Positions 14,601-61,096 of a stretch of DNA of 64,000 bases are shown piece by piece. This stretch comes from Escherichia coli. Lineage in GTDB: Bacteria > Pseudomonadota > Gammaproteobacteria > Enterobacterales > Enterobacteriaceae. Made by a program: the position numbers and the translations under genes. Position 1 is the first letter of the stretch, and the number at the start of each line of letters is the position of its first letter. The stretch is taken from NCBI RefSeq assembly GCF_001677475.2, contig NZ_CP015229.1; one strand, given 5' to 3'. Below the pieces are notes generated by a model. That model worked only from the letters and a program-made list of their open reading frames with translations, was not told where the DNA came from and made no database searches.

Positions 14601-16415
14601 GTGTTCACCGGGGACCGGGGCGGTGAAATCCGCCACCGGCTGGCACGTGATGCGGCGGGCCGGCTCACGGCAAAGGAGACAGCCGATGGCCATACGGAAT
14701 ACGTCCATGATGCGGCAGACCAGCTACTGGAAATCCGCCGCCGACGGTCGGATGCCGGGGAAACAGACGCACCGGAGATTATCCGTTTCAGTTACGACAG
14801 ACTGGGGCGGATGCTGACCGAGGAGACGGCGCAGGGCGTCCTGACCCATCAGTACGATGAACTCAGCAACCGGACAGCCACCACCTTTCCGGATGGCAGA
14901 ACGCAGCGTCATCTGTACTACGGCAGCGGCCATCTCCAGCAGATAAATCTGGACCGGGAGGTCATCAGCGAGTTCACACGTGACGCCCTGCACCGGGAAG
15001 TGCTCAGAAGTCAGGGGCGACTGAGCACGCGGCAGCTTTATGACCCCGCCGGGCGGCTGAAGCGCAGGGAGACATACAGCGGGATGCGCGGGGTGGTACC
15101 GGAGACGTTCACGGACCGGCAGTACAGCTACAGCGGCGAGGATGAATTGCTGAAGACGCGGCACAGCCGGCGGGGGGAAACGGATTACGTCTACGACCCC
15201 ACGGGGCGCATCACGGCGTGCCGCTCGGAGGATGAGGGGTATCTGGCGAGCTGGCAGTACGACGCGGCGGGAAACCTGCTGGGGAGGCGCGCGGGGGAAA
15301 GGGCCACGGCAGAAAACAGCGTGGTGCCGTTCAACCGGCTGATGTCTTACCGTGGTGTGCACTACCGTTATGACGAATTTGGCCGGACGGTGGAAAAGGA
15401 GGGCCGGAGCGGCACGCAGAGTTACCGTTATGATGCGGAACACCGGATGGTGGAAGTGACGACAGCGCGGGGGACATACCGGTATGTGTACGATGCGCTG
15501 GGGAGGCGGACGGAAAAACAGCACATCAGCCCTGACGGTAAAGCGTACAACCGGACGACATTTTTATGGGACGGAATGCGGCTGGCGCAGGAGAGCAGGC
15601 CGGAGGGAATAAGCAGCCTGTATATCTACAGCGACCCGGGGAGTTATGAACCGCTGGCGCGGGTGGATAAGGCGGGCAAAGAGGGCCCGAACCGGATACT
15701 GTATTTTCACACGGATGTGAACGGTGCGCCGGAAGAGATGACGGACAGTGACGGGAAAATCGTGTGGGAGACGGGGTATCAGGTCTGGGGTAACACGATA
15801 CAGGAGAAGGACCACGGCGGGGTGGAGCAGAACCTGCGCTACCAGGGACAGTACCTCGACAGGGAAACGGGGCTGCACTACAATCTGCACAGGTACTATG
15901 ATCCGGATGTCGGGCGGTTCATGGTAACGGACCCGATAGGGCTGGCGGGGGGGCTGAATCTTTATACTTATGCGCCTAATCCAGTAAGCTGGATAGATCC
16001 CCTTGGTTTAAGTTGTTACTTTAATTCTAAGTCTAATCGCTGGCATGACAGGCAGACAGGTCGTTTTACAAAACGACCAACAGATCCTTCAGAATTAGTT
16101 CATAATGGCCGAATTGACAAGGCTGATATAGATGTTTGGGCTAGTCAAGGAGGGATTCCAAATACATGGGGGCATGATCCGTTAAAATTCCCCAGTGGTG
16201 GTTTTAAATATGATGCTGGTAATTATACTGTTCATGGTCATGGTGCTAATCCATCTGCGGCAGCTAAATTTCCTAATTCTAATGCGGCAAATGGGCCGAC
16301 AGCGAGCATGAAAAATACTTCAACAGGTGAAGTGTTTAGAACCGATGGAACTTGGGGGACATTCAAATCAGATGCCAATGGTGCTCATATCCCCCTTGAT
16401 GGCTCACCTTATTGA
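11700..16415 (+). CDS. Rhs-family T6SS effector with N-terminal prePAAR motif, transmembrane segments, PAAR region, YD-repeat shell and variable C-terminal toxin domain
   Basis: 1571 aa; AARQGDALLH matches the prePAAR AARxxDxxxH motif; hydrophobic stretches follow; two ...PAAR... segments; numerous YD repeats; DPIGL...DPLGLS demarcation then low-GC 134-aa tail. Confidence 0.9.
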   Translation: MEEAFWAARQGDALLHTSFMADVLGAVVEVAATALVDVLVVGTMAALGGVEVATLGCSTILAIGIATAVFMSYQGWNDRISRESEQLANWLFPPQIEGYILTGSGDTWINSKPAARAAATAASRQDIEAQEAQAKAEQEEAQRQEDARTFLDVAGEYLEMAGAIALAVNPVTGPVLMSRALHDQLSTEEGRSEMVDGVTHFVSELWQPTVASAAPGSTPTPDDKIDCHKHPSSLTQFLAQKKAAFLDDPLGTALNLLSPGGMLETAFQGVNAVIGSISNLFKGDDEPPAAEYIAEGARDVRINSQPAARSGARCTCEARVVNEPGNGAFVSPDVRIGGPLLVVRDIRSGRSQITLVATVALMFLRPGKMLSKIACFAASVGMGVMTQKAISALPHPVNAATGAKYLADDDDFDFSLPGHFPLDWQRVYSSRDDRTEGMFGQGWSVMYEVSLERTPGTADENCMTFVSGMGRRLDMEAVLPGSGFYSPGEGLAVRRGEQGHWLISSDDGQFFLFEADPRHPQRQRLKMLGDRNSNCLNLYYDELGRITQISGEQQRPCIRLHYELAAHPRRVTQIYQHFPEMAPLLLRRYRYDEAGDLNGVYDSTGHLLREFAYDENHCMTLHRQPGGEGYYYQWGWYEGPDDAAWRVTGHHTDSGEQYRLAWSLAARRLCVTDGLGRTRYHQWDAQNQVTAYQDEAGQVTTFRWSDEERLLLGMTDAQGGKWRYVYDRQGHITETHDPLGRVAQTQWHPVWHQPETEVDAAGNSWCCEYDERGNLLAVTDPLQQNTRYQYDRHGQVVQITDARGGNKYLQWNEDGQLMRHTDCSGSQTAWFYDERTRLIRMTDAQSHSTRYGYDDSGHLTEVILADGRTVNYQSDAAGRLVKYTSPMGRITRWQRDGQGRVRSRTDATGRRTAFGYDAYGRLVTLTNENGESYRFRHDVLDRLAEQINPDGCRQTYRYNALNAVTEVVFTGDRGGEIRHRLARDAAGRLTAKETADGHTEYVHDAADQLLEIRRRRSDAGETDAPEIIRFSYDRLGRMLTEETAQGVLTHQYDELSNRTATTFPDGRTQRHLYYGSGHLQQINLDREVISEFTRDALHREVLRSQGRLSTRQLYDPAGRLKRRETYSGMRGVVPETFTDRQYSYSGEDELLKTRHSRRGETDYVYDPTGRITACRSEDEGYLASWQYDAAGNLLGRRAGERATAENSVVPFNRLMSYRGVHYRYDEFGRTVEKEGRSGTQSYRYDAEHRMVEVTTARGTYRYVYDALGRRTEKQHISPDGKAYNRTTFLWDGMRLAQESRPEGISSLYIYSDPGSYEPLARVDKAGKEGPNRILYFHTDVNGAPEEMTDSDGKIVWETGYQVWGNTIQEKDHGGVEQNLRYQGQYLDRETGLHYNLHRYYDPDVGRFMVTDPIGLAGGLNLYTYAPNPVSWIDPLGLSCYFNSKSNRWHDRQTGRFTKRPTDPSELVHNGRIDKADIDVWASQGGIPNTWGHDPLKFPSGGFKYDAGNYTVHGHGANPSAAAKFPNSNAANGPTASMKNTSTGEVFRTDGTWGTFKSDANGAHIPLDGSPY

Positions 16416-17432: not shown

Positions 17433-18722
17433 AGGGAAAGATCACGTAATGCTGCTTTTTTGTACTAAACAATTCGCATTTTATGTTTAAAAATTGAGAT
17501 ATTCCTCATTACATAAAGCTGTTTTTTATTGCTTATACATGATCAAATACTCCTTACATAATTAAGGAGAACAAAATGGAACTTAAAAAATTGATGGAAC
17601 ATATTTCTATTATCCCCGATTACAGACAAGCCTGGAAAGTGGAACATAAATTATCGGATATTCTACTGTTGACTATTTGTGCCGTTATTTCGGGTGCAGA
17701 AGGCTGGGAAGATATAGAGGATTTTGGGGAAACACATCTCGATTTTTTGAAGCAATATGGTGATTTTGATAATGGTATTCCTGTTCACGATACCATTGCC
17801 AGAGTTGTATCCTGTATCAGTCCTGCAAAATTTCACGAGTGCTTTATTAACTGGATGCGTGACTGCCATTCTTCAGATGATAAAGACGTCATCGCAATTG
17901 ATGGAAAAACGCTCCGGCATTCTTATGACAAGAGTCGCCGCAGGGGAGCGATTCATGTCATTAGTGCGTTCTCAACAATGCACAGTCTGGTCATCGGACA
18001 GATCAGGACGGATGAGAAATCAAATGAAATTACAGCTATCCCTGAACTTCTTAACATGCTGGATATTAAAGGAAAAATCATCACAACTGATGCGATGGGT
18101 TGCCAGAAAGATATTGCAGAGAAGATACAAAAACAGGGAGGTGATTATTTATTCGCTGTAAAAGGAAACCAGGGGCGGCTAAATAAAGCCTTTGAGGAAA
18201 AATTCCCACTGAAAGAATTAAATAATCCAGAGCATGACAGTTACGCAATTAGTGAAAAGAGTCACGGCAGAGAAGAAATCCGTCTTCACATTGTTTGCGA
18301 TGTCCCTGATGAACTTATTGATTTCACGTTTGAATGGAAAGGACTGAAGAAATTATGCGTGGCAGTCTCCTTTCGGTCAATAATAGCAGAACAAAAGAAA
18401 GAGCCAGAAATGACGGTCAGATATTATATCAGTTCTGCTGATTTAACCGCAGAGAAGTTCGCCACAGCAATCCGAAACCACTGGCACGTGGAGAATAAGC
18501 TGCACTGGCGTCTGGACGTGGTAATGAATGAAGACGACTGCAAAATAAGAAGAGGAAACGCCGCAGAATTATTTTCAGGGATACGGCACATCGCTATTAA
18601 TATTTTAACGAATGATAAGGTATTCAAGGCAGGGTTAAGACGTAAGATGCGAAAAGCAGCCATGGACAGAAACTATCTCGCGTCAGTCCTTGCGGGGAGC
18701 GGGCTTTCGTAATCTTGCCCTG
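17432..18722 (+). mobile_element. ISAs1-family (H-repeat type) insertion sequence, intact copy
   Basis: About 1.29 kb; imperfect terminal inverted repeats CAGGGAAAGATCAC / (rc) CAGGGCAAGATTAC; single 378-aa transposase ORF. Confidence 0.75.
17576..18712 (+). CDS. ISAs1-family transposase (H-repeat-associated protein)
   Basis: 378 aa; sequence strongly resembles E. coli H-rpt proteins (YdcC/YhhI type) from memory. Confidence 0.85.
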
Positions 18723-40482: not shown

Positions 40483-43400
40483 ATGGACGTCAGTCGCAGA
40501 CAATTTTTTAAAATCTGCGCGGGCGGTATGGCTGGAACAACGGTAGCGGCATTGGGCTTTGCCCCGAAGCAAGCACTGGCTCAGGCGCGAAACTACAAAT
40601 TATTACGCGCTAAAGAGATCCGTAACACCTGCACATACTGTTCCGTAGGTTGCGGGCTATTGATGTATAGCCTGGGTGATGGCGCGAAAAACGCCAGAGA
40701 AGCGATTTATCACATTGAAGGTGACCCGGATCATCCGGTAAGCCGTGGTGCGCTGTGCCCAAAAGGGGCAGGTTTGCTGGATTACGTCAACAGCGAAAAC
40801 CGTCTGCGCTACCCGGAATATCGTGCGCCAGGTTCTGACAAATGGCAGCGCATTAGCTGGGAAGAAGCATTCTCCCGTATTGCGAAGCTGATGAAAGCTG
40901 ACCGTGACGCTAACTTTATTGAAAAGAACGAGCAGGGCGTAACGGTAAACCGTTGGCTTTCTACCGGTATGCTGTGTGCTTCCGGTGCCAGCAACGAAAC
41001 CGGGATGCTGACCCAGAAATTTGCCCGCTCCCTCGGGATGCTGGCGGTAGACAACCAGGCGCGCGTCTGACACGGACCAACGGTAGCAAGTCTTGCTCCA
41101 ACATTTGGTCGCGGTGCGATGACCAACCACTGGGTGGATATCAAAAACGCTAATGTCGTAATGGTGATGGGCGGTAACGCTGCTGAAGCGCATCCCGTCG
41201 GTTTCCGCTGGGCGATGGAAGCGAAAAACAACAACGATGCAACCTTGATCGTTGTCGATCCCCGTTTTACGCGTACCGCTTCTGTGGCGGATATTTACGC
41301 ACCTATTCGTTCCGGTACGGACATTACGTTCCTGTCTGGCGTTTTGCGCTACCTGATCGAAAACAACAAAATCAACGCCGAATACGTTAAGCATTACACC
41401 AACGCCAGCCTGCTGGTGCGTGATGATTTTACTTTCGAAGACGGCCTGTTCAGCGGTTATGACGCTGAAAAACGCCAGTACGATAAGTCGTCCTGGAACT
41501 ATCAGTTCGATGAAAACGGCTATGCGAAACGCGATGACACGCTGACTCATCCGCGCTGTGTGTGGAACCTGCTGAAAGCGCACGTTTCCCGCTACACGCC
41601 AGACGTCGTTGAAAACATCTGCGGTACGCCAAAAGCCGACTTCCTGAAAGTGTGTGAAGTGCTGGCCTCCACCAGCGCACCGGATCGCACAACCACCTTC
41701 CTGTACGCGCTGGGCTGGACGCAGCACACCGTGGGTGCGCAGAACATCCGTACTATGGCGATGATCCAGTTACTGCTCGGTAACATGGGTATGGCCGGTG
41801 GTGGCGTGAACGCATTGCGTGGTCACTCCAATATTCAGGGCCTGACTGACTTAGGCCTGCTCTCTACCAGCCTGCCAGGTTATCTGACGCTGCCGTCAGA
41901 AAAACAGGTTGATTTGCAGTCGTATCTGGAAGCGAACACGCCGAAAGCGACGTTGGCTGATCAGGTGAACTACTGGAGCAACTATCCGAAGTTTTTCGTT
42001 AGCCTGATGAAATCTTTCTACGGCGATGCCGCGCAGAAAGAGAATAACTGGGGTTACGACTGGCTGCCGAAGTGGGACCAGACCTACGACGTCATCAAGT
42101 ATTTCAACATGATGGACGAAGGCAAAGTCACCGGTTATTTCTGCCAGGGCTTTAACCCGGTTGCGTCCTTCCCGGACAAAAACAAAGTGGTGAGCTGCCT
42201 GAGCAAGCTGAAGTACATGGTGGTTATCGATCCGCTGGTGACTGAAACCTCTACCTTCTGGCAGAACCACGGCGAGTCGAACGATGTCGATCCTGCGTCT
42301 ATTCAGACTGAAGTATTCCGTCTGCCTTCGACCTGCTTTGCTGAAGAAGATGGTTCTATCGCTAACTCCGGTCGCTGGTTGCAGTGGCACTGGAAAGGTC
42401 AGGATGCGCCGGGCGAAGCGCGTAACGACGGCGAAATTCTGGCGGGTATCTACCATCATCTGCGCGAGCTGTACCACGCCGAAGGTGGTAAAGGCGTAGA
42501 ACCGCTGATGAAGATGAGCTGGAACTACAAGCAGCCGCACGAACCGCAGTCTGACGAAGTGGCGAAAGAGAATAACGGCTATGCGCTGGAAGATCTCTAT
42601 GATGCTAATGGCGTGCTGATTGCGAAGAAAGGTCAGTTGCTGAGTAGCTTTGCGCATCTGCGTGATGACGGTACAACCGCATCGTCTTGCTGGATCTACA
42701 CCGGTAGCTGGACAGAGCAGGGCAACCAGATGGCTAACCGCGATAACTCCGACCCATCCGGTCTGGGGAATACGCTGGGATGGGCCTGGGCGTGGCCGCT
42801 CAACCGTCGCGTACTCTATAACCGTGCTTCGGCGGATATCAACGGTAAACCGTGGGATCCGAAACGGATGCTGATCCAGTGGAATGGCAGCAAGTGGACG
42901 GGTAACGATATTCCGGACTTCGGCAATGCCGCACCAGGTACGCTAACCGGGCCGTTTATCATGCAACCGGAAGGGATGGGACGCCTGTTTGCCATCAACA
43001 AAATGGCGGAAGGTCCGTTCCCGGAACACTACGAGCCAATTGAAACGCCGCTGGGCACTAACCCGCTGCATCCGAACGTGGTGTCTAACCCGGTGGTTCG
43101 TCTGTATGAACAAGACGCGCTGCGGATGGGTAAAAAAGAGCAGTTCCCGTATGTGGGTACGACCTATCGTCTGACCGAGCACTTCCACACCTGGACCAAG
43201 CACGCATTGCTCAACGCAATCGCCCAGCCGGAACAGTTTGTGGAGATCAGCGAAACGCTGGCGGCGGCGAAAGGCATTGCCAATGGTGACCGTGTCACTG
43301 TCTCCAGCAAGCGTGGCTTTATCCGCGCGGTGGCTGTGGTAACGCGCCGTCTGAAACCGCTGAATGTAAACGGTCAGCAGGTTGAAACGGTGGGTATTCC

Positions 43401-43530
43401 AATCCACTGGGGCTTTGAGGGTGTCGCGCGTAAAGGTTATATCGCTAACACTCTGACGCCAAATGTCGGTGATGCAAACTCGCAAACGCCGGAATATAAA
43501 GCGTTCTTAGTAAACATCGAGAAGGCGTAA
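40483..43530 (+). CDS. fdnG: Formate dehydrogenase-N alpha subunit with in-frame TGA (selenocysteine) at 41068-41070
   Basis: Track ORFs 40483..41070 and 41119..43530 are in the same frame separated by a single TGA; Tat signal (RRQFFK) and Mo-bisPGD sequence. Confidence 0.9.
41071..41110 (+). promoter_or_regulatory. SECIS element directing selenocysteine insertion at the fdnG UGA
   Basis: Location immediately 3' of the in-frame TGA; exact stem-loop not folded here. Confidence 0.45.
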
Positions 43531-49527: not shown

Positions 49528-49956
49528 ATGACAATCCATAAGAAAGGTCAGGCACACTGGGAAGGCGATATCAAACGCGGGAAGGGAACAGTATCCACCG
49601 AGAGCGGCGTGCTGAACCAACAGCCGTATGGATTTAACACGCGTTTTGAAGGCGAAAAAGGAACCAACCCTGAAGAACTGATTGGCGCAGCGCATGCCGC
49701 ATGTTTCTCAATGGCGCTTTCATTAATGCTGGGGGAAGCGGGATTCACGCCAACATCGATTGATACCACCGCCGATGTGTCGCTGGATAAAGTGGATGCC
49801 GGTTTTGCGATTACGAAAATCGCACTGAAGAGTGAAGTTGCGGTGCCGGGTATTGATGCCTCTACCTTTGACGGCATCATCCAGAAAGCAAAAGCAGGAT
49901 GTCCGGTTTCACAGGTACTGAAAGCGGAAATTACGCTGGTATTAGACGTCAACTAG
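49528..49956 (+). CDS. osmC: Osmotically inducible peroxiredoxin OsmC
   Basis: 142 aa; OsmC/Ohr family sequence. Confidence 0.9.
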   Translation: MTIHKKGQAHWEGDIKRGKGTVSTESGVLNQQPYGFNTRFEGEKGTNPEELIGAAHAACFSMALSLMLGEAGFTPTSIDTTADVSLDKVDAGFAITKIALKSEVAVPGIDASTFDGIIQKAKAGCPVSQVLKAEITLVLDVN

Positions 49957-50004
49957 TTTTGCCGACTCGCGCCAACTATACTGGCCGCACCCTTCAGGGC
50001 GACA

Positions 50005-50760
50005 TCAAGTCGCGCTTGTTACTGCCTTCGCTGTCTTTTTCCTGTAGCTTTCCCCTTTCAGTTCGAACATATATCCGTGATGGATCAGCCTGTCTGCCGC
50101 AGCCACCGCCATAGTCTCATCCACGAAGATGCTGCCCCACATGCTGAACGGATGGTTACTGGTTATCACCAGGCTCCCACGTTCATAGCGATGCGCTATT
50201 AACTCGAACAGCACACCCGTTTCGGCACTATCGCGTTTGACATAGCCAAGATCATCCACCACTATCACCCGGTAGCGATCCAGTTTCAGTAGCAGCTCAT
50301 TCAGTTTCAACTGAGCTCTGGCTTTACGTAGTTCCTGCAACAGCTCTCCTGCGCTGTAGAACCGGGCCCGGTAGCCCTGACCTACTACGCCATCCACGAT
50401 CGCTGCCGCCAGATGGCTTTTCCCCAACCCGCTGGCTCCGAACAGCAGAACGTTTTCTCCTGCATCAACCCAGTCTGTCGTTTCACAGAGTTGCCGGAAC
50501 TGAGCTCCATTCAGTTCCGGCACCTGACTGAAGTCGTATTCGCTCAGCGTTTTGGCAACTGGCAACCGGGCCTCCTTTTTATAACGACGCAGTTTTTCAC
50601 TCTCGCGCCACAGGAGTTCTTCATTGCATAGCGTCAGAAGATAGCGCGATGGTGTCCAGCCTTCTGCCAGCGCTCGTTTTTCCAGAGCGTGCCATTCAGC
50701 TCCAACTCGTGTCAGGCGTAGTTTACGCAGGCTATGTTCAAGGTGATGGATATTGCTCAC
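50005..50760 (-). CDS. istB: IS21-family helper ATPase IstB
   Basis: 251 aa; Walker A GASGLGKSHLA and Walker B VIVVDDLGY. Confidence 0.85.
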   Translation of the reverse strand: MSNIHHLEHSLRKLRLTRVGAEWHALEKRALAEGWTPSRYLLTLCNEELLWRESEKLRRYKKEARLPVAKTLSEYDFSQVPELNGAQFRQLCETTDWVDAGENVLLFGASGLGKSHLAAAIVDGVVGQGYRARFYSAGELLQELRKARAQLKLNELLLKLDRYRVIVVDDLGYVKRDSAETGVLFELIAHRYERGSLVITSNHPFSMWGSIFVDETMAVAAADRLIHHGYMFELKGESYRKKTAKAVTSAT

Positions 50761-52256
50761 TGCGAACCTCCCTTGCCACGCAGTAGTTGCTCATAACTGC
50801 TCAGGTTATGCTGTATCACATTGACTACCGGCAACGCCTTTTCTTTTATACCCAGGAAGCGCATCAGCCGGTGCAGATCCACGTTTCCCGGGGTATTCAG
50901 CATCTGCTCCATACCTTTTGCCACGACTGAGATATCGTCGTATCCTGCAGCCAGTTTCAGGGCATGTACCATCAGCCTTCCTGCCATATCGGGCTCCAGA
51001 TGATTACATAAGCGACGCCACAGCCTCCGCCATTCATCGTCCGGCAGGATGTCATTTCTCAGCGTTGCATGGCAGAACGCACCGGGCTTTTTTGCCAGAC
51101 TGTCGATCACATGTCGGAAGTCGATACGACGGGCCCGCGTCTTCCCTTTTTCTGGTCTGACGCGAGGGCAGCTCATGACCTCGCTGCTGCCAACGTAACA
51201 GCTCAGACGATCGTCCCATAACCTGACCCGTAACAGTTGACCTACAAGCCGGGAAGGTACGCTGTAGACGACGTGCTTCACATTGATGGTACTGCTGCGA
51301 CTAACCCTCACAGTCAGCTCATCATAGTCAGCACTGCGACGAAGCGGCAGCGGTTTCAGATGAAGACGTTCTTCCTTGACCAGATCCTGATTGTTACGGT
51401 TGTGCCGCATAACCTGCTGAGTGATGAAGGCCTGATATTCTTCTATGGTGCTGAAGTCGTTACTGCCCCGCAGTATCAGCGCCTGACAGATACGCCTTTT
51501 CAGATGTCCGTGGGCACTTTCAACCGAGCCATTTTCGTGGCCCCGACCGGCATTATTGTGTACGCCCTGCATTCCGTAGTGCTGACAGAGAGTAGCATAA
51601 CGCTCAGTCAGCTCGCGGCGTCCATCTTCGCCCTGTTGTTTCCATGCTGCCCTCAGGCTGTCCGTTTTATGTTCTACCGGCACTCCGCCCAGTTGTCCGA
51701 GGGCTTCCTGCAGGCCTTCAGCCAGAGCAGAGAAGCTCTCACCACCCAGAACAACCCGCATCCAGCTCCAGTGGCTCCATTCCAGACGGAAGTGATACAA
51801 CTTATGCGCCAACAACTTACCGGCGATGGTGACAACTACACCTTTCAGTTCAGTAAAGTCCGACAGGCCTCGCAGGCCGGGCTGATGTTGCTGGCGGAAC
51901 ATGACCTCCTGCTCTGTACCATACTGTAGTTTCCATTCGCGAACCCGCCGTTGCATTGTTCTTCGAAGGCTGTTGGGGTACTGGCCGGGATATTTATCCT
52001 GTAGCATCTCCAGTAGAGTTGTTGGTGTCAGAGCCGGCCTCTCTTTCAACAGAGGAACAAGCATGCTGTCCCACACAGCTTCCAGAGGATCTTTGCGTGT
52101 GCGCCAGTGCCGAACACTGTTTTTTGCCCACTCTCCTTTTTCGATCCGACGACCAGAACGGACTGAGATACCAGCCTTCATGGCCGAGATATGCTGAGTT
52201 ATACCTTTCTTACGCTGAGTCATATAGTAACTGACCTGAGAAGTATTGAGCGTCAC
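50757..52256 (-). CDS. istA: IS21-family transposase IstA
   Basis: 499 aa; N-terminal HTH, DDE-type core; 4-bp overlap with istB. Confidence 0.85.
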   Translation of the reverse strand: MTLNTSQVSYYMTQRKKGITQHISAMKAGISVRSGRRIEKGEWAKNSVRHWRTRKDPLEAVWDSMLVPLLKERPALTPTTLLEMLQDKYPGQYPNSLRRTMQRRVREWKLQYGTEQEVMFRQQHQPGLRGLSDFTELKGVVVTIAGKLLAHKLYHFRLEWSHWSWMRVVLGGESFSALAEGLQEALGQLGGVPVEHKTDSLRAAWKQQGEDGRRELTERYATLCQHYGMQGVHNNAGRGHENGSVESAHGHLKRRICQALILRGSNDFSTIEEYQAFITQQVMRHNRNNQDLVKEERLHLKPLPLRRSADYDELTVRVSRSSTINVKHVVYSVPSRLVGQLLRVRLWDDRLSCYVGSSEVMSCPRVRPEKGKTRARRIDFRHVIDSLAKKPGAFCHATLRNDILPDDEWRRLWRRLCNHLEPDMAGRLMVHALKLAAGYDDISVVAKGMEQMLNTPGNVDLHRLMRFLGIKEKALPVVNVIQHNLSSYEQLLRGKGGSQ

Positions 52257-52380
52257 GCCATTTCCTGTTGGATCATGTAAATGACACTCAGGTTACAAAA
52301 CCGGCCAGAATAATCGGCGCCAGGCGGACTGAGTTATTGTCGTCTCATACGCTGGATTACCAGTTGAAATCGTAAAGCGT

Positions 52381-52404
52381 TGCCGGATGACGCGTCATCC
52401 GGCG
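52381..52404. repeat. Perfect palindrome GCCGGATGACGCGTCATCCGGC (REP-like / terminator hairpin)
   Basis: Read directly; lies just 3' of the dehydrogenase gene on the minus strand. Confidence 0.4.
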
Positions 52405-52409
52405 AACAC

Positions 52410-53180
52410 TTACTGCGCTACCCAACCGCCATCCATATTCCACGCCACCCCACGCACTTGTGCTGCCGCATCCGAACAGAGAAACAGCGCCAGTTCACCC
52501 AGTTGTTGCGGAGTCACAAATTCACGAGAAGGCTGTTTTTCTGCCAGTAAGGCGTCACGCGCGCTTTCCGCATCTTCGCCTTGCGCAATGCGCTTATCAA
52601 TCTGCTGTTGTACCAGCGGCGTCAGCACCCAGCCAGGGCAGAGCGCGTTGCAGGTAATACCCGTCTGCGCAGTTTCCAGAGCAATGGTCTTTGTGAGTCC
52701 CACCACGCCATGTTTTGCCGCAACATAAGCTGATTTGTCTTTCGACGCTACCAGCCCATGCACAGAGGCAATGTTAATGATCCGACCCCAGTTACGAGTG
52801 CGCATTTCTGGCAGTGCCAGACGCGTGGTGTGAAAGACAGAAGAGAGATTGATGGCGATAATGGCGTTCCATTTTTCTACAGGGAAAGATTCAACCGGGG
52901 AGACATACTGGATCCCGGCGTTATTCACCAGAATGTCCACACCGCCAAATTCCCGCCGTGCGTAGGCCATCATGTTGATAATTTGCGATTCATCGCTGAG
53001 GTCTGCCTCATGATAGCCAGGCGTTTTACCCATACGAGAAACCGCATTGATTGCCGCGTCAACATCACCGAAGCCGTTGAGGATCACTTGCGCGCCAGCG
53101 TTTGCCAGTGTCTGAGCAATACCGAGTCCGATACCGCTGGTGGACCCCGTCACCAGCGCAGTTTTACCTTGTAAATTCAT
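52410..53180 (-). CDS. Short-chain dehydrogenase/reductase, 3-hydroxybutyrate dehydrogenase-like
   Basis: 256 aa; TGSTSGIG cofactor motif and YxxxK catalytic motif. Confidence 0.75.
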   Translation of the reverse strand: MNLQGKTALVTGSTSGIGLGIAQTLANAGAQVILNGFGDVDAAINAVSRMGKTPGYHEADLSDESQIINMMAYARREFGGVDILVNNAGIQYVSPVESFPVEKWNAIIAINLSSVFHTTRLALPEMRTRNWGRIINIASVHGLVASKDKSAYVAAKHGVVGLTKTIALETAQTGITCNALCPGWVLTPLVQQQIDKRIAQGEDAESARDALLAEKQPSREFVTPQQLGELALFLCSDAAAQVRGVAWNMDGGWVAQ

Positions 53181-53191
53181 GATGATTTTCC

Positions 53192-54583
53192 TTAGACAAT
53201 GCCGGTGGTGTAGTACACGCCGATGATAAACAGCACGGCCAGACTTTTAATGATCGTAATTGCGAAGATGCCGCCGTAAGCCTGACGGTGACTCAGCCCA
53301 GTAATTGCCAGCAGGGTGATCACAGCGCCGTTATGGGGCAATGTATCCATGCCGCCACTGGCCATAGATGCCACGCGGTGAAAAACTTCCAGTGGAATAT
53401 TGGCAGCGTGCGCAGCGGCAATAAAAGTGTCGGACATAGCCGCAAGAGCAATACTCATCCCGCCGGACGCTGAACCGGTAATTCCGGCAAGTGTGGTGAT
53501 GCTGATGGCTTCGTTGAGTAATGGATCAGGAATGGCGGCCAGCGCCTTTGAGAGCACCAGAAAACCGGGTAGGGCGGCGATAACCGCACCGAAGCCATAT
53601 TCTGAGGCGGTGTTCATCGCAGCCAGAATTGCGCCGCCTACCGCTGTACGGCTTCCTTCTGCCAGTCTTCCATGAATATTGCGATATCCAAAAATCACTA
53701 CCAGCAAAATTCCGGCAATGAGCGCAGCTTCGACGGCCCAGATTGCGGTGATTTTGGCGACATCTGTGGTAATCGGGGCGGTAAGTCCCGGCAACTCCAG
53801 TTGGTGGCTCGCACCGTACCAAACAGGGATCCACCAGGTAAACAACAAGTTCAACAGCCCCACCAGAATCAATGGTGAAATCGCAATGAGTGGGTTCGGT
53901 AAATTGATGTTATCTGGTGTTTCAGGTTCATTAAGTAACTCTGTGCCGTAACCTTCATTTTTTGCCTGCGCTTTACGACGCTGCCGCTCCAGATAGATAA
54001 GCCCGACGGCAATGATAAACAGTGAACCAATAAGCCCCAGCCACGGCGCGGCCCAGGCGTTGGTGCCAAAGAAACTGGTAGGAATAATGTTCTGAATTTG
54101 TGGCGTGCCGGGCAGAGCGTCCATAGTAAAAGAGAATGCTCCCAGGGCCACCGTTGCCGGTATAAGTCGTTTTGGGATGTTACTCTGGCGGAACAGTTCA
54201 GCCGCGAACGGATAAACGGCAAATGCCACCACAAACAGCGACACTCCGCCATAGGTGAGTAATGCACATACCAGCACAATCACCGGAATCGCATGCCGCC
54301 GGCCGAGAATGTTGATTGCAGCAGCGACAATCGAACGAGAAAATCCTGAAAGTTCAATCAGTTTTCCGAACACGGCCCCGAGCAGAAACACCGGGAAGTA
54401 CAATTTCACGAAGCCGACCATTTTTTCCATGAACAGGCCGGTAAATGCTGGGCCAACGGCCCCCGGATCGGTGACAAGAACAGCGCCTAATGCTGCGATG
54501 GGGGCAAAAAGGATAACGCTGTATCCGCGATAGGCTGCCAGCATTAGCAGCCCAAGCGCGGCAAGGGCGATTAATACACTCAT
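53192..54583 (-). CDS. GntP-family permease (hydroxy-acid/H+ symporter type)
   Basis: 463 aa polytopic membrane protein with GntP-like sequence. Confidence 0.75.
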   Translation of the reverse strand: MSVLIALAALGLLMLAAYRGYSVILFAPIAALGAVLVTDPGAVGPAFTGLFMEKMVGFVKLYFPVFLLGAVFGKLIELSGFSRSIVAAAINILGRRHAIPVIVLVCALLTYGGVSLFVVAFAVYPFAAELFRQSNIPKRLIPATVALGAFSFTMDALPGTPQIQNIIPTSFFGTNAWAAPWLGLIGSLFIIAVGLIYLERQRRKAQAKNEGYGTELLNEPETPDNINLPNPLIAISPLILVGLLNLLFTWWIPVWYGASHQLELPGLTAPITTDVAKITAIWAVEAALIAGILLVVIFGYRNIHGRLAEGSRTAVGGAILAAMNTASEYGFGAVIAALPGFLVLSKALAAIPDPLLNEAISITTLAGITGSASGGMSIALAAMSDTFIAAAHAANIPLEVFHRVASMASGGMDTLPHNGAVITLLAITGLSHRQAYGGIFAITIIKSLAVLFIIGVYYTTGIV

Positions 54584-54628
54584 CGGGACTCCTCAATATC
54601 GTTGTTATAGTGGGTACAGCGAGAGAAG

Positions 54629-55552
54629 TTATGGTTTAAGGGCGAAGCGAAGTTGATGTTCCCGACGCTGCTGGATGTACTGCTTCCGCGATTCATCCCA
54701 GCAGTAAAATCCCTGACCGCTACGTACGCCGATGTCTCCACGTTCCACTTTTTCGGCAACTAATGACATCATGTCGCTGCCAGTCGCTAGTTCAGGGAGC
54801 AGATGGCGACAAATATCCTGCACCGTCGAAAGTCCGGTCATGTCGGCGGCCTCCAGCGGGCCGACCATGGCATAACGTCGCCCAAGCGAGGCGCGCATCA
54901 CCTGATCCACCACTTCTGCACTGGCGATGCCGCTTTTTACGATATGCAGGGCTTCACGCAACAGTGCAAATTGCAGACGGTTGCCGACAAATCCTGGCGC
55001 AGCGCGATCCAGCAACACTGCTTCCAGTTGCAGTGACACAAGCAAGTGTTGCAGCCAGTGCAAATGCTTTGGCTCGGTAACGCTGCCGGGGATAATCTCC
55101 ACAAGTGGAATGAAGTGCGGCGGATGCCAGAAATGGGCGATCAGCAGTCGTTGCGGGTAGCGCATCTTCGCGGCCAGATCATCGGGCGGCAGACCGCTGG
55201 TATTGCTGGCGACAATGGCCTCAGGAGAAATAAGCGTTTCAAGCTCGGTATATAATGCGTGTTTTAGTTCAAGTCGCTCCGGGATCGCCTCAATCAGTAG
55301 TTGCGAGTCGGCGATGTCTGCAAGAGAAGTCGTGCCGTGCAGACGTTTAAGCACATTCTCTTTTTCCGGGGCAGTAAACTGTTCGCAGCTAATCAGCTCA
55401 TCAAGAATTCCGCCTGCAACTACGTGGATTTCTGCAATCCGGCTCTGCTCGGTATCGTACAGCCAGATATCATGACCAAAGCGGGCGAAATGAGTGGCAA
55501 TCCCCACGCCCATCAATCCGGCGCCCAGTACCGCAAATTGTTCAGTTTGCAT
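54629..55552 (-). CDS. 3-hydroxyacyl-CoA dehydrogenase family protein
   Basis: 307 aa; N-terminal Rossmann motif [13 protein letters not shown]. Confidence 0.7.
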
Positions 55553-56746
55553 GGTGTTCTCCTGTGGTTCTTTCCAGTGTCAGCGCCACGCCCTGACCGC
55601 CACCGACGCACAGCGTCGCCAGCCCTTTTTGCGCATTACGTCGCGCCATTTCATAAATGAGAGTGACCAGAATGCGGCAACCGGAAGCGCCAATAGGATG
55701 CCCAAGTGCGATTGCGCCGCCGTTAACATTCACTTTGTCGCAATCCCAGTTCAGTTCGTCGCCAACGGCCAGCGCCTGCGCTGCGAAAGCCTCGTTGGCT
55801 TCAATAAGATCAATATCTTCCAGCGTCCATCCGCAACGCTTAAGACATTCGCGGGAGCGGCGACCGGACCAATGCCCATAAAGGCAGGATCGACGCCAGA
55901 AACGGCATAACCAGCCACCCGAGCCAGCACAGGGAGACCAAGTTCGGCAGCTTTGCTGGCGCGCATTAACATGACTGCGGCGGCACCATCATTGATGGAA
56001 GAAGCATTTCCTGCGGTGACGCTTCCCGCCCCCGGAAGAAAGGCCGGTTTCAGTTGTGCTAGTTTTTCCAGTTGCGTCCCGGAACGTGGTTGTTCGTCGG
56101 TATTTACCCTGCGTGGTGGTTTTTTACCTTGTGGTACGCTGACCGGAGTAATTTCGTCTGCAAAGCGCCCGGCTTCCATTGCGGCAGCGGCTTTTTGCTG
56201 AGAACGTAGCGCGAATGTGTCCTGTCGCTCGCGACTGATGGCATATTTTTGCGCCAGGTTTTCTGCAGTAATGCCCATGTGGTAATCATTGAAAGCGTCC
56301 CATAGTCCGTCATGCACCACGCTGTCTTTCATGCTGGTATGCCCGAGGCGTAAACCTGCCCGTGCGCCATCAATAAAATAGGGCGCGTTACTCATGCTTT
56401 CCTGGCCACCTGCGATAATTATCTGTGCATCACCGCAACGGATCGCCTGTACGGCCTGGTGTACTGCTTTCAGACCGGAACCACATACCAGGTTGATGGT
56501 AACGGCGGGTGTATCGTGGCTTAACCCGGCTTTGAGCGCCGATTGCCGTGCCGGATTTTGTCCGCTTCCGGCAGTCAGGACCTGACCAAAAATCACTTCG
56601 TCGATCTGTTCTGCTGCAAGTGCTGTTTTCTCCAGCAATGAACGGATGGTGGCAGCGCCGAGATCAACCGCAGAAAGTGGGGCGAGAGCGCCATGAAAAC
56701 AGCCAATCGGTGTGCGCGTAGCGGCAACAATAACAACGTCCTGCAT
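55542..56746 (-). pseudogene. Acetyl-CoA acetyltransferase (thiolase) with apparent 1-nt frameshift near 55850
   Basis: Track shows N-terminal 331-codon ORF (55751..56746) and the conserved C-terminal thiolase segment [24 protein letters not shown] in a different frame (55542..55733). Confidence 0.65.
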
Positions 56747-56755
56747 GGTGATTCC

Positions 56756-57412
56756 TCAGTTGAATTGCATTTCCGGGACATGTTCCGGCACAAACAACTT
56801 ACCGGCGGTTTTGGCGATGATTTCCGCAACGCTGATTCCCGGCGCGCGCTCGCGCAGAATGAAAGCTCCGTCAGCAATTTCCAGCAGAGCAAGGTCGGTT
56901 AAGACGCGTTTGATGCATCCGGCGCCGGTCAACGGAAGGGTACAGTCAGGAAGCAGTTTGGATTCGCCGGATTTGGAGGCGTGGGTCATTACCACAATAA
57001 TATTCTCGGCACCGGCAACCAGATCCATGGCACCGCCCATGCCTTTAACCATCTTGCCGGGGATCATCCATGAGGCAATGTTGCCATTCACATCCACTTC
57101 AAATACGCCAAGTACAGTCAGATCCACATGACCGCCACGGATCATGGCGAATGATTGCGCCGAATCGAAAATTGCCGCGCCTTTCCGCGCGGTAACGGTT
57201 TGTTTACCGGCATTAATCATGTCGGCGTCCAGTTCGTCTTCCGTAGGAAATGCGCCCATTCCCAGCAAACCGTTTTCTGACTGCAACATCACATCCATCC
57301 CGTCAGGAATGTAGTTTGCCACCAGGGTCGGGATACCAATGCCGAGATTGACGTAATAGCCATCGCGCAATTCGCGGGCGACTCGCATCGCCATTTGTTC
57401 ACGGGTTAACAT
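56756..57412 (-). CDS. 3-oxoacid CoA-transferase subunit B (AtoA-like)
   Basis: 218 aa; AtoA/ScoB-like sequence. Confidence 0.8.
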   Translation of the reverse strand: MLTREQMAMRVARELRDGYYVNLGIGIPTLVANYIPDGMDVMLQSENGLLGMGAFPTEDELDADMINAGKQTVTARKGAAIFDSAQSFAMIRGGHVDLTVLGVFEVDVNGNIASWMIPGKMVKGMGGAMDLVAGAENIIVVMTHASKSGESKLLPDCTLPLTGAGCIKRVLTDLALLEIADGAFILRERAPGISVAEIIAKTAGKLFVPEHVPEMQFN

Positions 57413-57414
57413 GG

Positions 57415-58122
57415 TCAGGCTCCTTTGCGGCTAAGGGTGCGTTGTTCAATGCGTTTTTCAAATTGCCCCTGAATGACGCGATTAACAAAAATCCCCGGGG
57501 TATGGATAGCGGCAGGATCAAGTTCACCAGGTGGCACTATTTCTTCCACTTCCACCACGGTGATTTTTCCGGCAGCCGCCATCAGTGGGTTGAAGTTTTG
57601 CGCGGTATGACGATAAATCACGTTGCCGTACCAGTCGGCTTTCCAGCCTTTGACCAGGGCAAAATCACCGGTGATAGCCTGTTCCATGATGTACGGGCGA
57701 CCGTTGAATTCGCGGACTTCTTTCCCTTCGGCAACGGGAGTACCGTAACCGGTGGCAGTAAAGAACGCCGGGATACCCGCGCCGCCTGCGCGCAGTTGTT
57801 CTGCCAGGGTTCCTTGTGGTGTGAGAATCGCCTCCAGTTCGCCGTTAAGCACCTGTTTTTCAAACAAAGCATTCTCGCCAACATAAGAAGCGACGACTTT
57901 ACGGATCTGTCGGCTTTCCAGTAGTACATCCAGTCCAAAACCATCTACGCCACAGTTATTGGAAACCACCGTTAATCCGGTTACTCCACGGTGGCGAACT
58001 TCAGCAATCAGATTCTCCGGGATGCCGCACAGGCCAAAACCTCCTGCCAGAATCGTCATCTCATTGGTAAGTCCTTCAAGCGCCTCGTGATACGTAGCGA
58101 CCCGTTTATCCAACCCAGCCAT
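57415..58122 (-). CDS. 3-oxoacid CoA-transferase subunit A (AtoD-like)
   Basis: 235 aa; AtoD/ScoA-like sequence. Confidence 0.8.
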
Positions 58123-58263
58123 ACAGTTGCCCTCCAGTTGTCCTTTTCAACATCATTAAGGGCAAAAAATGATTTGTTAATTTTAAATTTGTGACTCATT
58201 CATTTGTATTATTTATCAATACAATGTTAATTAAATGTATTCAGTAGGTTAACGGGGTGCCAG

Positions 58264-59154
58264 ATGAAAATGAGCATCAAACAGTTACGCGCGTTTTTAG
58301 CGGTAGCTCACACTCTGAACTTTGCCCATGCCAGTGAACGGCTGAATATGTCGCAGCCTGCGCTAAGTCTTGCCATTAAAGGACTGGAAGATGCCTTAGG
58401 GGGCGCTTTACTGCTGCGTACTACGCGAAAAGTGACATTAACCCAGGAGGGGGAAACGCTATTGTCGATGGCACGGCCTTTGCTGGCTGACTGGGATAAC
58501 ACTGAGGAGGCCATGCGTCAGCGATTCACGCTCAGGCGGGGCAAAGTCTCGGTGGCAGCGATGCCGTCATTTGCAGCCAACGTTCTGCCTCCGGTGCTGA
58601 AAACCTTCCGCGATTGTTATTCAGGGATTAATGTCACCGTGCACGATGTGGTGAATGAGCAGGTGATCGAAATGGTGAGCGAAGGGCGTGTGGAGATGGG
58701 TATTGCCTTTGAACCTGACTATTGCGGCCATGTGCATTTTACCCCACTGGGCGTGGATCGGTTTGTCGCTATTGTTCCAGCCGATTCACGACTGGCAAAT
58801 CGGCAACGCGTGAGTTGGCGGGATTTGCTGACGCTCGATTTTATCACCCTCCAGCGACCGTCAGCCGTCAGGTTGATGCTGGAGGAGCAGTTGGCACAAA
58901 GTGGAACGCAACTGGAAGTGTCGCTGGAAAGCCATCAACTGGTTACGGTTGGGCGGCTGGTGGCAAACGGTTTGGGAGGAAGCGCTGTGCCTGCGCTGTG
59001 CCGCAGGCAGATGAGCGAACTGGGCGCAGTGTGTCTGGAACTGGATAATCCAGTGATTGAGCGACGAGTAGGCGTACTGCGTTCGTCACACCATAAGCTT
59101 TCTACTGCGGCGCAGGCGTTGATGGAAACGTTAAAAAAAACCTATGACGCATAA
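58264..59154 (+). CDS. LysR-family transcriptional regulator, divergent from the catabolic operon
   Basis: 296 aa; N-terminal HTH LRAFLAVAHTLNFAHASERLNMSQPALSLAIKGLE. Confidence 0.8.
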   Translation: MKMSIKQLRAFLAVAHTLNFAHASERLNMSQPALSLAIKGLEDALGGALLLRTTRKVTLTQEGETLLSMARPLLADWDNTEEAMRQRFTLRRGKVSVAAMPSFAANVLPPVLKTFRDCYSGINVTVHDVVNEQVIEMVSEGRVEMGIAFEPDYCGHVHFTPLGVDRFVAIVPADSRLANRQRVSWRDLLTLDFITLQRPSAVRLMLEEQLAQSGTQLEVSLESHQLVTVGRLVANGLGGSAVPALCRRQMSELGAVCLELDNPVIERRVGVLRSSHHKLSTAAQALMETLKKTYDA

Positions 59155-59190
59155 CGTTTCCGCAGACATGCAATAGCCGGATGCCGCGTC

Positions 59191-60117
59191 CTACAGCGCC
59201 CGCCAGCAACGGATCTCACGTCCGTCAGCCCGCGTCGTTAATGATTGCCGGACTTCGCATCCGCTGGTTGCAAGGGGGCAACGTTCGCGGAAAAAACAGC
59301 CTTGTGGCAACGTGCGGTTTCCTGGTAGATCCGTTTTACGTAATGCCCATTCTTCCTCCAGCGGTTTATCAATGGCGGGGAGGGAATCCAGCAATAATCG
59401 GGTGTAGGGATGTGCCGGAGCTGTCAGCACCTGTTGCGCGTCTCCTAGTTCCACAATCTGTCCGAGATACATCACCGCCACCCGATCGCTCATATGACGT
59501 ATCACCGAGACATTGTGTGAAATCAGCACATAAGTCAGCTCGCGATTTTCCTGTAGCGTTACCAGTAAATTGAGGATCTGCGCCTGCACGGAGATATCCA
59601 GCGCCGAGGTTGGTTCATCAAGCACAATCACGTCAGGCTGCGAAGAGAGTGCTCTGGCAATGGCGATACGTTGCCGCTGCCCGCCTGAGAACGCATGAGG
59701 CAAGCGGTCGAGATACTCCGGACGAATACCCACCTGCACAGCCAGCTCCTCTGCCAACGCTCGCCGCTGTTGTTCACTACTACGCTTAGCAATCCAGAGC
59801 GGTTCCGTGATGATGCGCCACACCGGTAAGCGCGGATTAAGCGAAGAGAGCGGGTCCTGAAACACCATCTGCATAATGCGTTGTGATCCTGAACGGATGT
59901 ACTGCCCGTGGCTTGGTTGCAGCATACCCATTAAAAGCTGTGCGAGGGTGCTTTTGCCGCAGCCTGACTCACCTACGATCCCTAAGGTTTCACCACGACG
60001 GATCTGTAAATCAATACCATTGATGGCATGAACATGTTCCGTAGTTTTACCAAGCCAGTTTTTTCGGGCCGGGAAATTGATATGGACGTCGCGTAACGTT
60101 AATAACGTGTCAGACAC
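59191..60117 (-). CDS. ddpF: Dipeptide ABC transporter ATP-binding protein DdpF
   Basis: GTG start after AGGAGG RBS (track ORF extends to 60171); Walker motifs. Confidence 0.85.
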   Translation of the reverse strand: MSDTLLTLRDVHINFPARKNWLGKTTEHVHAINGIDLQIRRGETLGIVGESGCGKSTLAQLLMGMLQPSHGQYIRSGSQRIMQMVFQDPLSSLNPRLPVWRIITEPLWIAKRSSEQQRRALAEELAVQVGIRPEYLDRLPHAFSGGQRQRIAIARALSSQPDVIVLDEPTSALDISVQAQILNLLVTLQENRELTYVLISHNVSVIRHMSDRVAVMYLGQIVELGDAQQVLTAPAHPYTRLLLDSLPAIDKPLEEEWALRKTDLPGNRTLPQGCFFRERCPLATSGCEVRQSLTTRADGREIRCWRAL

Positions 60118-61096
60118 TAATGACCTCCTGCTGAGGATACCAACAGGCGCAGCTGTGGTTGTTGTCACCACACGCTGTCAGCGCCGGGACGTTTTCACAC
60201 TGTGCACCTGCCGCATAGCAACGATCGCGAAAAGCGCAGCCGTCAGGCAAATGGGTGAGGTTTGGTACCGTCCCTGGAATGGCGGGTAATGGCTGGCGCG
60301 GTATTCCATGTTCCGGTGCGCATTGCAGCAAACCAATGGTATACGGATGCCGGGGATGATGGATAACGTCTGCCGTCACGCCGCTCTCAATCACGCTTCC
60401 GGCATACATCACGTAAACGCTATCGCACAGTTGCGACACCACGGCCATATCATGGCTGATGAACAGTACCGCAGTTCCACTGGCGCGGGCTTTATGTTTA
60501 AGCAGACGCAGTACCTGCAACTGTACCGTGACGTCCAGCGCCGTAGTCGGTTCGTCGGCAATAATCAATTGCGGCTCGCAGGAGAATGCCAGCGCAATCA
60601 TTACCCGCTGTCGCATACCACCTGAAAGCTCAAACGGATAGCGCGACATAACTTCCACGGCATCCGGGATTTGCATTTCTTCCAGCAGGGCAATCGCTTT
60701 AGCTCTGGCTTCCCGACGACTTATTGGTTGATGATGGCGGATCACGTCCATCATCTGAAGACCTATTCGACGTGTCGGATTAAGGGCGGTCATCGGTTCC
60801 TGAAAGATCATCGCCACTCGTGCGCCGCGCCACTGACGAAGCTGCTTTTCCCGAGCGTTAAGAGCATCTTCTCCCAGCAGTGAAATATGTCCCCGATCTA
60901 CGCAATAACTGCCCGTCGGTAGCAGACGCATAATCAACATTGCAGTGACTGATTTACCCGAGCCGGATTCTCCCACCAGACCGACAATTTCACCGCGGTT
61001 GATTTTCAATGACACATTGTTGAGCGCGTGAACGTCGCCGTTAAAACCGGGGAAACTCAAATGCAGCTGTTGAATGTCCAGAACGGGTTGGGTCAT
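60110..61096 (-). CDS. ddpD: Dipeptide ABC transporter ATP-binding protein DdpD
   Basis: 328 aa ABC ATPase. Confidence 0.85.
   Translation of the reverse strand: MTQPVLDIQQLHLSFPGFNGDVHALNNVSLKINRGEIVGLVGESGSGKSVTAMLIMRLLPTGSYCVDRGHISLLGEDALNAREKQLRQWRGARVAMIFQEPMTALNPTRRIGLQMMDVIRHHQPISRREARAKAIALLEEMQIPDAVEVMSRYPFELSGGMRQRVMIALAFSCEPQLIIADEPTTALDVTVQLQVLRLLKHKARASGTAVLFISHDMAVVSQLCDSVYVMYAGSVIESGVTADVIHHPRHPYTIGLLQCAPEHGIPRQPLPAIPGTVPNLTHLPDGCAFRDRCYAAGAQCENVPALTACGDNNHSCACWYPQQEVISV

Follow-up and report, generated by a model that had tools for sequence, protein, structure and literature searches.

The thiolase gene of an accessory operon with a predicted role in 3-hydroxybutyrate/acetoacetate catabolism in this Escherichia coli genome very probably carries a true and recently derived loss-of-function mutation, the deletion of a single A at nucleotide 892 of the gene (dA892), found in one sublineage of a divergent clone. 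The gene lies on the minus strand at positions 55542-56746 of the window, i.e., the whole 64,000-nt stretch of contig NZ_CP015229.1 that was analysed, and is 1205 nt long compared with 1206 nt in the intact E. coli orthologue. The alignment was made to the intact thiolase gene of E. coli PCN033 (L001:6155-7360, 1206 nt, 401 aa, WP_001154415.1), in which the missing base belongs to codon 298. It is absent between window positions 55856 and 55855 (GCCGCT^CCCGCG), where the reference thiolase reads GCCGCTACCCGCG and the window GCCGCTCCCGCG; the frameshift allele is spelled GCTCCCGCG and the allele retaining the A GCTACCCGCG, also written GCTACCCGC. The two genes further differ by two synonymous SNPs, at window positions 55937 and 55931, and residues 1-297 are the same.

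An open reading frame scan of the minus strand recovers two ORFs in different frames, at 55751..56746 (331 aa) and 55542..55733 (63 aa). An earlier note on this DNA had claimed that the conserved C-terminal segment of the thiolase is out of frame with its N-terminal part, and both the ORF scan and the alignment to PCN033 agree with it. The single-base indel that it proposed as the cause corresponds to the 1-nt gap in the alignment to the intact gene, and its placement near 55850 was accurate to about 5 nt. The 300 codons that it assigned to the native frame have to be corrected to 297. The parts of the gene are as follows.

55542..56746, minus strand: acetyl-CoA C-acetyltransferase (thiolase) pseudogene, with 2 SNPs and a 1-nt deletion in the PCN033 alignment
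55855..56746, minus strand: native-frame part up to the deletion junction, codons 1-297, including the nucleophile Cys88 (VCGSG)
55751..55855, minus strand: out-of-frame tail of 34 aberrant codons, with a premature TGA at 55751-55753
55542..55733, minus strand: C-terminal remnant ORF of 63 aa with a GTG start, equal to intact residues 339-401, with His350 of GHP and Cys380 of CVGGG

The identity of the gene is well supported by its intact orthologue, which scores 501.1 bits against TIGR01930 (cut-off 240.55) and hence belongs to the thiolase family. Its score against NF004206 (677 bits) is slightly under the cut-off of 688, and it matches solved thiolases over residues 1-399, the best being 8gqj_A (612 bits). 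Thiolases act through four catalytic loops, VCGSG, NEAF, GHP and CxGGG, whose role in catalysis is established for the family. In the intact protein these motifs occupy residues 87-91 (VCGSG), 318-321 (NEAF), 349-351 (GHP) and 380-384 (CVGGG). The window product departs from the intact thiolase at residue 298, such that the four loops are not united in one polypeptide: the frame with the start codon encodes VCGSG, with Cys88, only, while NEAF, GHP and CVGGG are coded beyond the deletion, in the -1 frame. Residues 298-338, including Asn318 of NEAF, are in the frame of the remnant, upstream of its GTG and inside no ORF with a start codon. In keeping with this division, Pfam recognizes Thiolase_N alone in the 331-aa product and Thiolase_C alone in the 63-aa product. 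Judged from these matches, the locus is a thiolase gene by descent which no longer encodes a complete thiolase. The frameshift product is predicted to keep the acyl-accepting Cys88 but to lack the NEAF Asn, the GHP His and the second catalytic Cys, and as such should be unable to catalyse thiolysis; it is not expected to be a working thiolase because the NEAF, GHP and CxGGG motifs sit in another frame. The gene is thus a pseudogene in the usual sense, with a reading frame that is broken relative to intact orthologues and a broken state that is derived.

Single-base indels are the commonest assembly artefact, and the earlier note had considered an assembly error in a homopolymer or GC-rich run, in which case the real genome would be intact and the missing base an artefact of base calling or consensus. 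With a 101-nt probe over the site, the allele was also not detected in any of the 230 complete RefSeq E. coli genomes that have the gene: the top hit reached 99.0%, the difference being the gap itself. However, the missing A is a lone base between T and CCC, outside any homopolymer, and the same deletion recurs in independent read sets and in NCBI assemblies. At least 18 Logan contigs, assembled independently from public read sets with both ERR and SRR prefixes, code for exactly the same 331-aa frameshift product; one of these contigs is common to 13 samples (ERR10434813 and 12 more), possibly one clone or outbreak, and other carriers include ERR3309126 and SRR11608754. Three of the 18 contigs were read directly against the window and all bear the deletion: that from ERR10434813 (L003) is 100% identical to window 52348-62746, that from ERR3309126 (L004) has 1 SNP in 10.4 kb (99.99%) and that from SRR11608754 (L005) has 2 SNPs in 8.7 kb (99.98%).

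A look-up of the exact DdpF protein of the window led to three NCBI assemblies. Two of them, GCA_019141245.1 (3 SNPs compared with the window) and GCA_018682815.1 (1 SNP), carry the same deletion (L099 and L101), while the third, GCA_036438655.1 (L100), is the closest relative that retains the A and differs from the window by 11 SNPs in 9.8 kb. Altogether, the frameshift copies match the window at 99.97-100%, i.e., 0-3 SNPs per ~10 kb, and the lesion is reproduced in independent data by the 18 Logan contigs and the 2 NCBI assemblies. Because some carriers are 1-3 SNPs away from the window, they represent different isolates, and because ~13 kb of the window match L003 perfectly outside a strain-specific IS insertion, the window assembly is accurate here. 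An error of sequencing or assembly is therefore very improbable, and this alternative can be regarded as effectively refuted. Since the closest relative in which the gene is intact is separated from the window by 11 SNPs in addition to that base, the deletion is both derived and recent. Hence, the mutation is genuine and derived, and it has become fixed in one young sublineage of the divergent clone.

The insertion mentioned above is an IS21-family element at window 49940-52340, with istB at 50005-50760 and istA at 50757-52256, both on the minus strand (transposase NF033546, 226 bits; helper ATPase IstB NF038214, 267 bits). It is inserted in the last codons of osmC (49528-49956) with a 7-bp duplication, ACGCTGG, and changes the OsmC tail from EITLDYQLKS to EITLVLDVN. 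Because L003 has the same thiolase deletion and lacks the insertion, the latter is strain-specific and younger than the frameshift. A 1-nt gap relative to L003 near window 49940 was dismissed as an alignment artefact at the junction of this insertion.

The core stretch at 26000-49900 (narZYWV, narU, fdnGHI, adhP, maeA) is at most 97.2% identical to any of the 5426 complete RefSeq E. coli genomes, and because this is the best core match, the strain belongs to a divergent lineage that has no close complete genome among them. Within this stretch, an in-frame TGA at 41068-41070 splits fdnG (40483-43530, plus strand) into two ORFs (...ARV*HGPT...), which we take to be the expected selenocysteine codon of formate dehydrogenase-N and not a lesion. 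Among the mobile or variable genes in the left part of the window are those for a prophage tail fibre (4254-6545), for VgrG (9184-11178), for a PAAR-Rhs toxin of 1571 aa (11700-16415) and for an ISAs1/H-repeat-type transposase (17576-18712). Two leucine-rich-repeat proteins are encoded side by side at 35266-37847.

The thiolase gene is the third of six closely packed minus-strand genes, with gaps of 2-45 nt, which face a divergent regulator. The genes that accompany it are listed below.

58264..59154, plus strand: divergent LysR-family regulator, 296 aa, the common E. coli form (the 891-nt form is also annotated in other genomes)
57415..58122, minus strand: 3-oxoacid CoA-transferase subunit A, first operon gene, intact (TIGR02429, 244.5 bits, cut-off 128.5; 1 aa different from PCN033, no indel)
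56756..57412, minus strand: 3-oxoacid CoA-transferase subunit B, intact (TIGR02428, 325.4 bits, cut-off 243.55)
54629..55552, minus strand: 3-hydroxyacyl-CoA dehydrogenase family protein, intact, starting with an ATG inside the thiolase ORF, whose natural end it overlaps by 11 nt
53192..54583, minus strand: permease, intact, presumed to import 3-hydroxybutyrate and assigned by PGAP to the 'GntP family'
52410..53180, minus strand: 3-hydroxybutyrate dehydrogenase, last operon gene, intact (NF009093, 371 bits, cut-off 258; TIGR01963, 343.5 bits, cut-off 307.05)

The remaining operon genes show no indels or stops in comparison with PCN033. The curated family matches support a predicted route from 3-hydroxybutyrate to acetoacetate, acetoacetyl-CoA and finally two acetyl-CoA. 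The assignment of the permease to a family and to a substrate is soft, as the 463-aa protein has no Pfam or NCBIfam match at E<=0.001 except a sub-threshold one to DUF3169. In a promoter and terminator scan of the operon, counts did not exceed the shuffled expectation and gave no evidence of an internal terminator; the promoter scan placed a weak promoter-like site in the intergenic region between LysR and the CoA-transferase. A second frameshift, in the LysR gene, was considered and rejected: the 1-nt gap at window 59141, after a run of eight A, is a peculiarity of PCN033. At the 3′ end of this gene (window 59133-59154), the window and most E. coli end in ...METLKKTYDA (296 aa), while PCN033, which is without one C after the A8 run, ends in ...METLKKTMTHNVSADMQ (303 aa).

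In a megablast search, the operon was found between ddpF and osmC in 231 of the 5426 complete E. coli genomes (~4%). Among the matches listed, the gene is annotated as a single 'acetyl-CoA C-acetyltransferase', with 1502 bases aligned to the 1501-base query. Citrobacter youngae, C. werkmanii and Citrobacter sp. FP75 have these seven genes at the corresponding ddp/osmC site, with ~78% nucleotide identity, and the seven-gene cluster also occurs in a genome labelled E. coli SCPM-O-B-8794, where it is 91% identical to the window (loci L006-L009, compared with window 52348-63724). The accessory island may therefore be an old enterobacterial locus that was lost from most E. coli. The island (52410-59154) differs from PCN033 by ~10 SNPs in 6.7 kb, and the flanking core genes (59191-63000) by ~2%, with 22/897, 13/987 and 22/927 differences in ddpC, ddpD and ddpF, respectively. 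Judging from these figures, the island was evidently exchanged between lineages far more recently than its flanks diverged. Relatives with an identical DdpF protein have an intact island, a frameshifted island or none.

The operon seems to be undescribed for E. coli in the searchable literature, and its closest parallel is the dhcR/dhcAB-atoB operon of Pseudomonas aeruginosa (PA1998-PA2001), which was described together with its regulator (PMC6235884). The window has the gene order of this system, i.e., a divergent LysR followed by CoA-transferase A, CoA-transferase B and thiolase, and the same order occurs in species representatives of Pseudomonas (31), Citrobacter (3), Pluralibacter and Serratia. 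In the 31 Pseudomonas representatives, the regulator is on the minus strand and the two CoA-transferase subunits and the thiolase on the plus strand. The proteins of one Pseudomonas locus (L010) share 62, 81, 84 and 72% amino-acid identity with the LysR, CoA-transferase A, CoA-transferase B and thiolase of the window, respectively. In P. aeruginosa the neighbours are the transporter PA2002 and bdhA, whereas in enterobacteria a single tight operon also includes a 3-hydroxyacyl-CoA dehydrogenase, a permease and a 3-hydroxybutyrate dehydrogenase. A further difference is that the thiolase is broken in the window, unlike in the Pseudomonas operon, for which a role in dehydrocarnitine catabolism has been reported. 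For the window operon, the matches give the family-level names 3-oxoacid CoA-transferase and 3-hydroxybutyrate dehydrogenase, and acetoacetate and dehydrocarnitine are both candidate substrates.

The atoDAEB system of E. coli performs the same chemistry, with the conversion of acetoacetate into acetoacetyl-CoA by a two-subunit CoA-transferase followed by thiolysis to acetyl-CoA. The protein chains 5f0v/5f38, which we take to be E. coli AtoB, align with the intact island thiolase from one end to the other (438 bits). The island differs from atoDAEB by its LysR-type regulator in place of the AtoSC two-component system and by its transporter, and it bears a 3-hydroxybutyrate dehydrogenase and a 3-hydroxyacyl-CoA dehydrogenase, which atoDAEB does not. 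The ato system has been described as induced by acetoacetate through AtoSC (PMC3118216).

A frameshifted gene could in principle still yield its product, and the two frames of the thiolase overlap by 238 nt (gene nucleotides 759-996, window 55988-55751), such that a programmed -1 ribosomal frameshift or transcriptional slippage inside the overlap might join them into a full-length thiolase. There is next to no chance that this is the case. Slippery heptamers of the form X XXY YYZ are absent from all frames of the overlap, which also has no homopolymer of four bases or longer; this is in line with the earlier note, which had seen no obvious programmed frameshift signal. A shift away from the exact deletion site would moreover garble conserved residues. 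Nor is the two-frame organisation conserved: in the comparison with orthologous clusters that the earlier note had called for, all orthologues examined are single-frame, with 401-aa proteins in 230 E. coli genomes, in Citrobacter and in the 91%-identical Escherichia; the shift thus arose by recent mutation and is not a conserved recoding site. Restoration of function from two pieces deserves equally little confidence as an assembly error. A GTG at 55733, 18 nt past the premature stop, opens exactly the native C-terminal frame, with the His and the second Cys, and could permit re-initiation to give a 63-aa peptide, which would have to form an active two-piece thiolase with the 331-aa N-terminal fragment. 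However, native residues 298-338, including NEAF, would be missing from both fragments, the N-terminal fragment bears 34 unrelated residues and the Shine-Dalgarno-like signal of the 63-aa ORF (GGGA, 10 nt upstream) is weak. To our knowledge, no thiolase functions as such a split.

The remaining question is whether the loss was neutral or favoured by selection. Six further independent inactivating thiolase alleles are present in public E. coli data (L086, L088-L091 and L093). A search with the 63-aa remnant returned nonsense mutations at codons 306 and 324, a 194-bp deletion, dG1001 and a copy without the first ~900 nt, and the dG714 allele of strain 23-AB02114 (NZ_CP172871.1) is labelled 'frameshifted' by PGAP. 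Some of the six alleles come from lightly corrected read assemblies, and both single-G deletions lie in G runs. Lesions also occur in the rest of the operon: of 60 genomes taken as a spread sample from the 231 complete ones, 4 have operon lesions, with the thiolase affected in one, the permease in two and the dehydrogenase in one. O145 RM12275-C1 has a GntP permease gene annotated as 'frameshifted', a deletion from the permease to adhP truncates the permease in BEC1-S17-ESBL-07, and in one sampled genome the dehydrogenase gene has lost 14 nt at its start. The annotated operon pseudogenes of 23-AB02114, O145 RM12275-C1 and BEC1-S17-ESBL-07 are events of the same kind as that of the window, at other positions and in other lineages.

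Positive selection for thiolase inactivation, e.g., to avoid a costly or harmful flux, would explain such recurrent lesions, and it can be argued for from the number of distinct inactivating alleles, at least seven, in public E. coli sequences and from the presence of the window allele in at least 20 sequenced isolates. Nevertheless, the other alleles come from a search with the remnant that can recover broken genes only, the intact protein is encoded on at least 1000 contigs, and in the 60-genome sample the lesions are not concentrated in the thiolase, a pattern that resembles neutral decay. Adaptive loss is thus improbable, though somewhat less so than the readings rejected above. The same small likelihood attaches to the more specific proposal that losing the thiolase while keeping the transporter, the dehydrogenases and the CoA-transferase is advantageous, that the gene is a recurrent target of loss and that the mutation spread through the clone. 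If this were true, the benefit might lie, e.g., in redirecting acetoacetyl-CoA or in preventing the reverse, acetyl-CoA-draining reaction, and the pseudogene would be a sign that gut E. coli has adaptively rewired its use of ketone bodies, and not a sign of neutral decay. As it stands, the mutation resembles the ordinary, sporadic decay of an accessory operon that is dispensable.

Under the favoured explanation, the recent loss of function by dA892, translation of the native frame would end after 297 correct and 34 wrong residues. In the pathway as predicted from the gene content, the permease would import 3-hydroxybutyrate and 3-hydroxybutyrate dehydrogenase would oxidise it to acetoacetate, which CoA-transferase A/B would activate to acetoacetyl-CoA for cleavage by the thiolase into two acetyl-CoA. 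This last step would be either lost in the lineage or carried out by another thiolase. In addition, 199 nt separate the premature stop from the downstream start codon, whereas in the intact operon the following gene overlaps the end of the thiolase gene. Translational coupling may therefore be weakened, and with it the translation and expression of the three genes that follow.

The earlier note had suggested, as one of two alternatives, that the pathway is inactivated at its last step in this strain, which is plausible. E. coli normally has other thiolases, namely AtoB, YqeF, FadA and FadI, and a block of the pathway is uncertain for that reason; AtoB is the most likely candidate to back up the lost enzyme in this strain. 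The intact state of the rest of the operon fits a very recent event, and it also fits a retained function that has no need of this thiolase.

The finding is of little importance beyond annotation, the gene being an ordinary, real, lineage-specific pseudogene of a kind already flagged by annotation pipelines. The locus should be labelled as a frameshifted thiolase pseudogene, and neither as two hypothetical ORFs nor as an assembly problem. As a clonal marker, the deletion cleanly sets off one sublineage of the divergent clone, and metabolic predictions for this lineage should leave out this enzyme.
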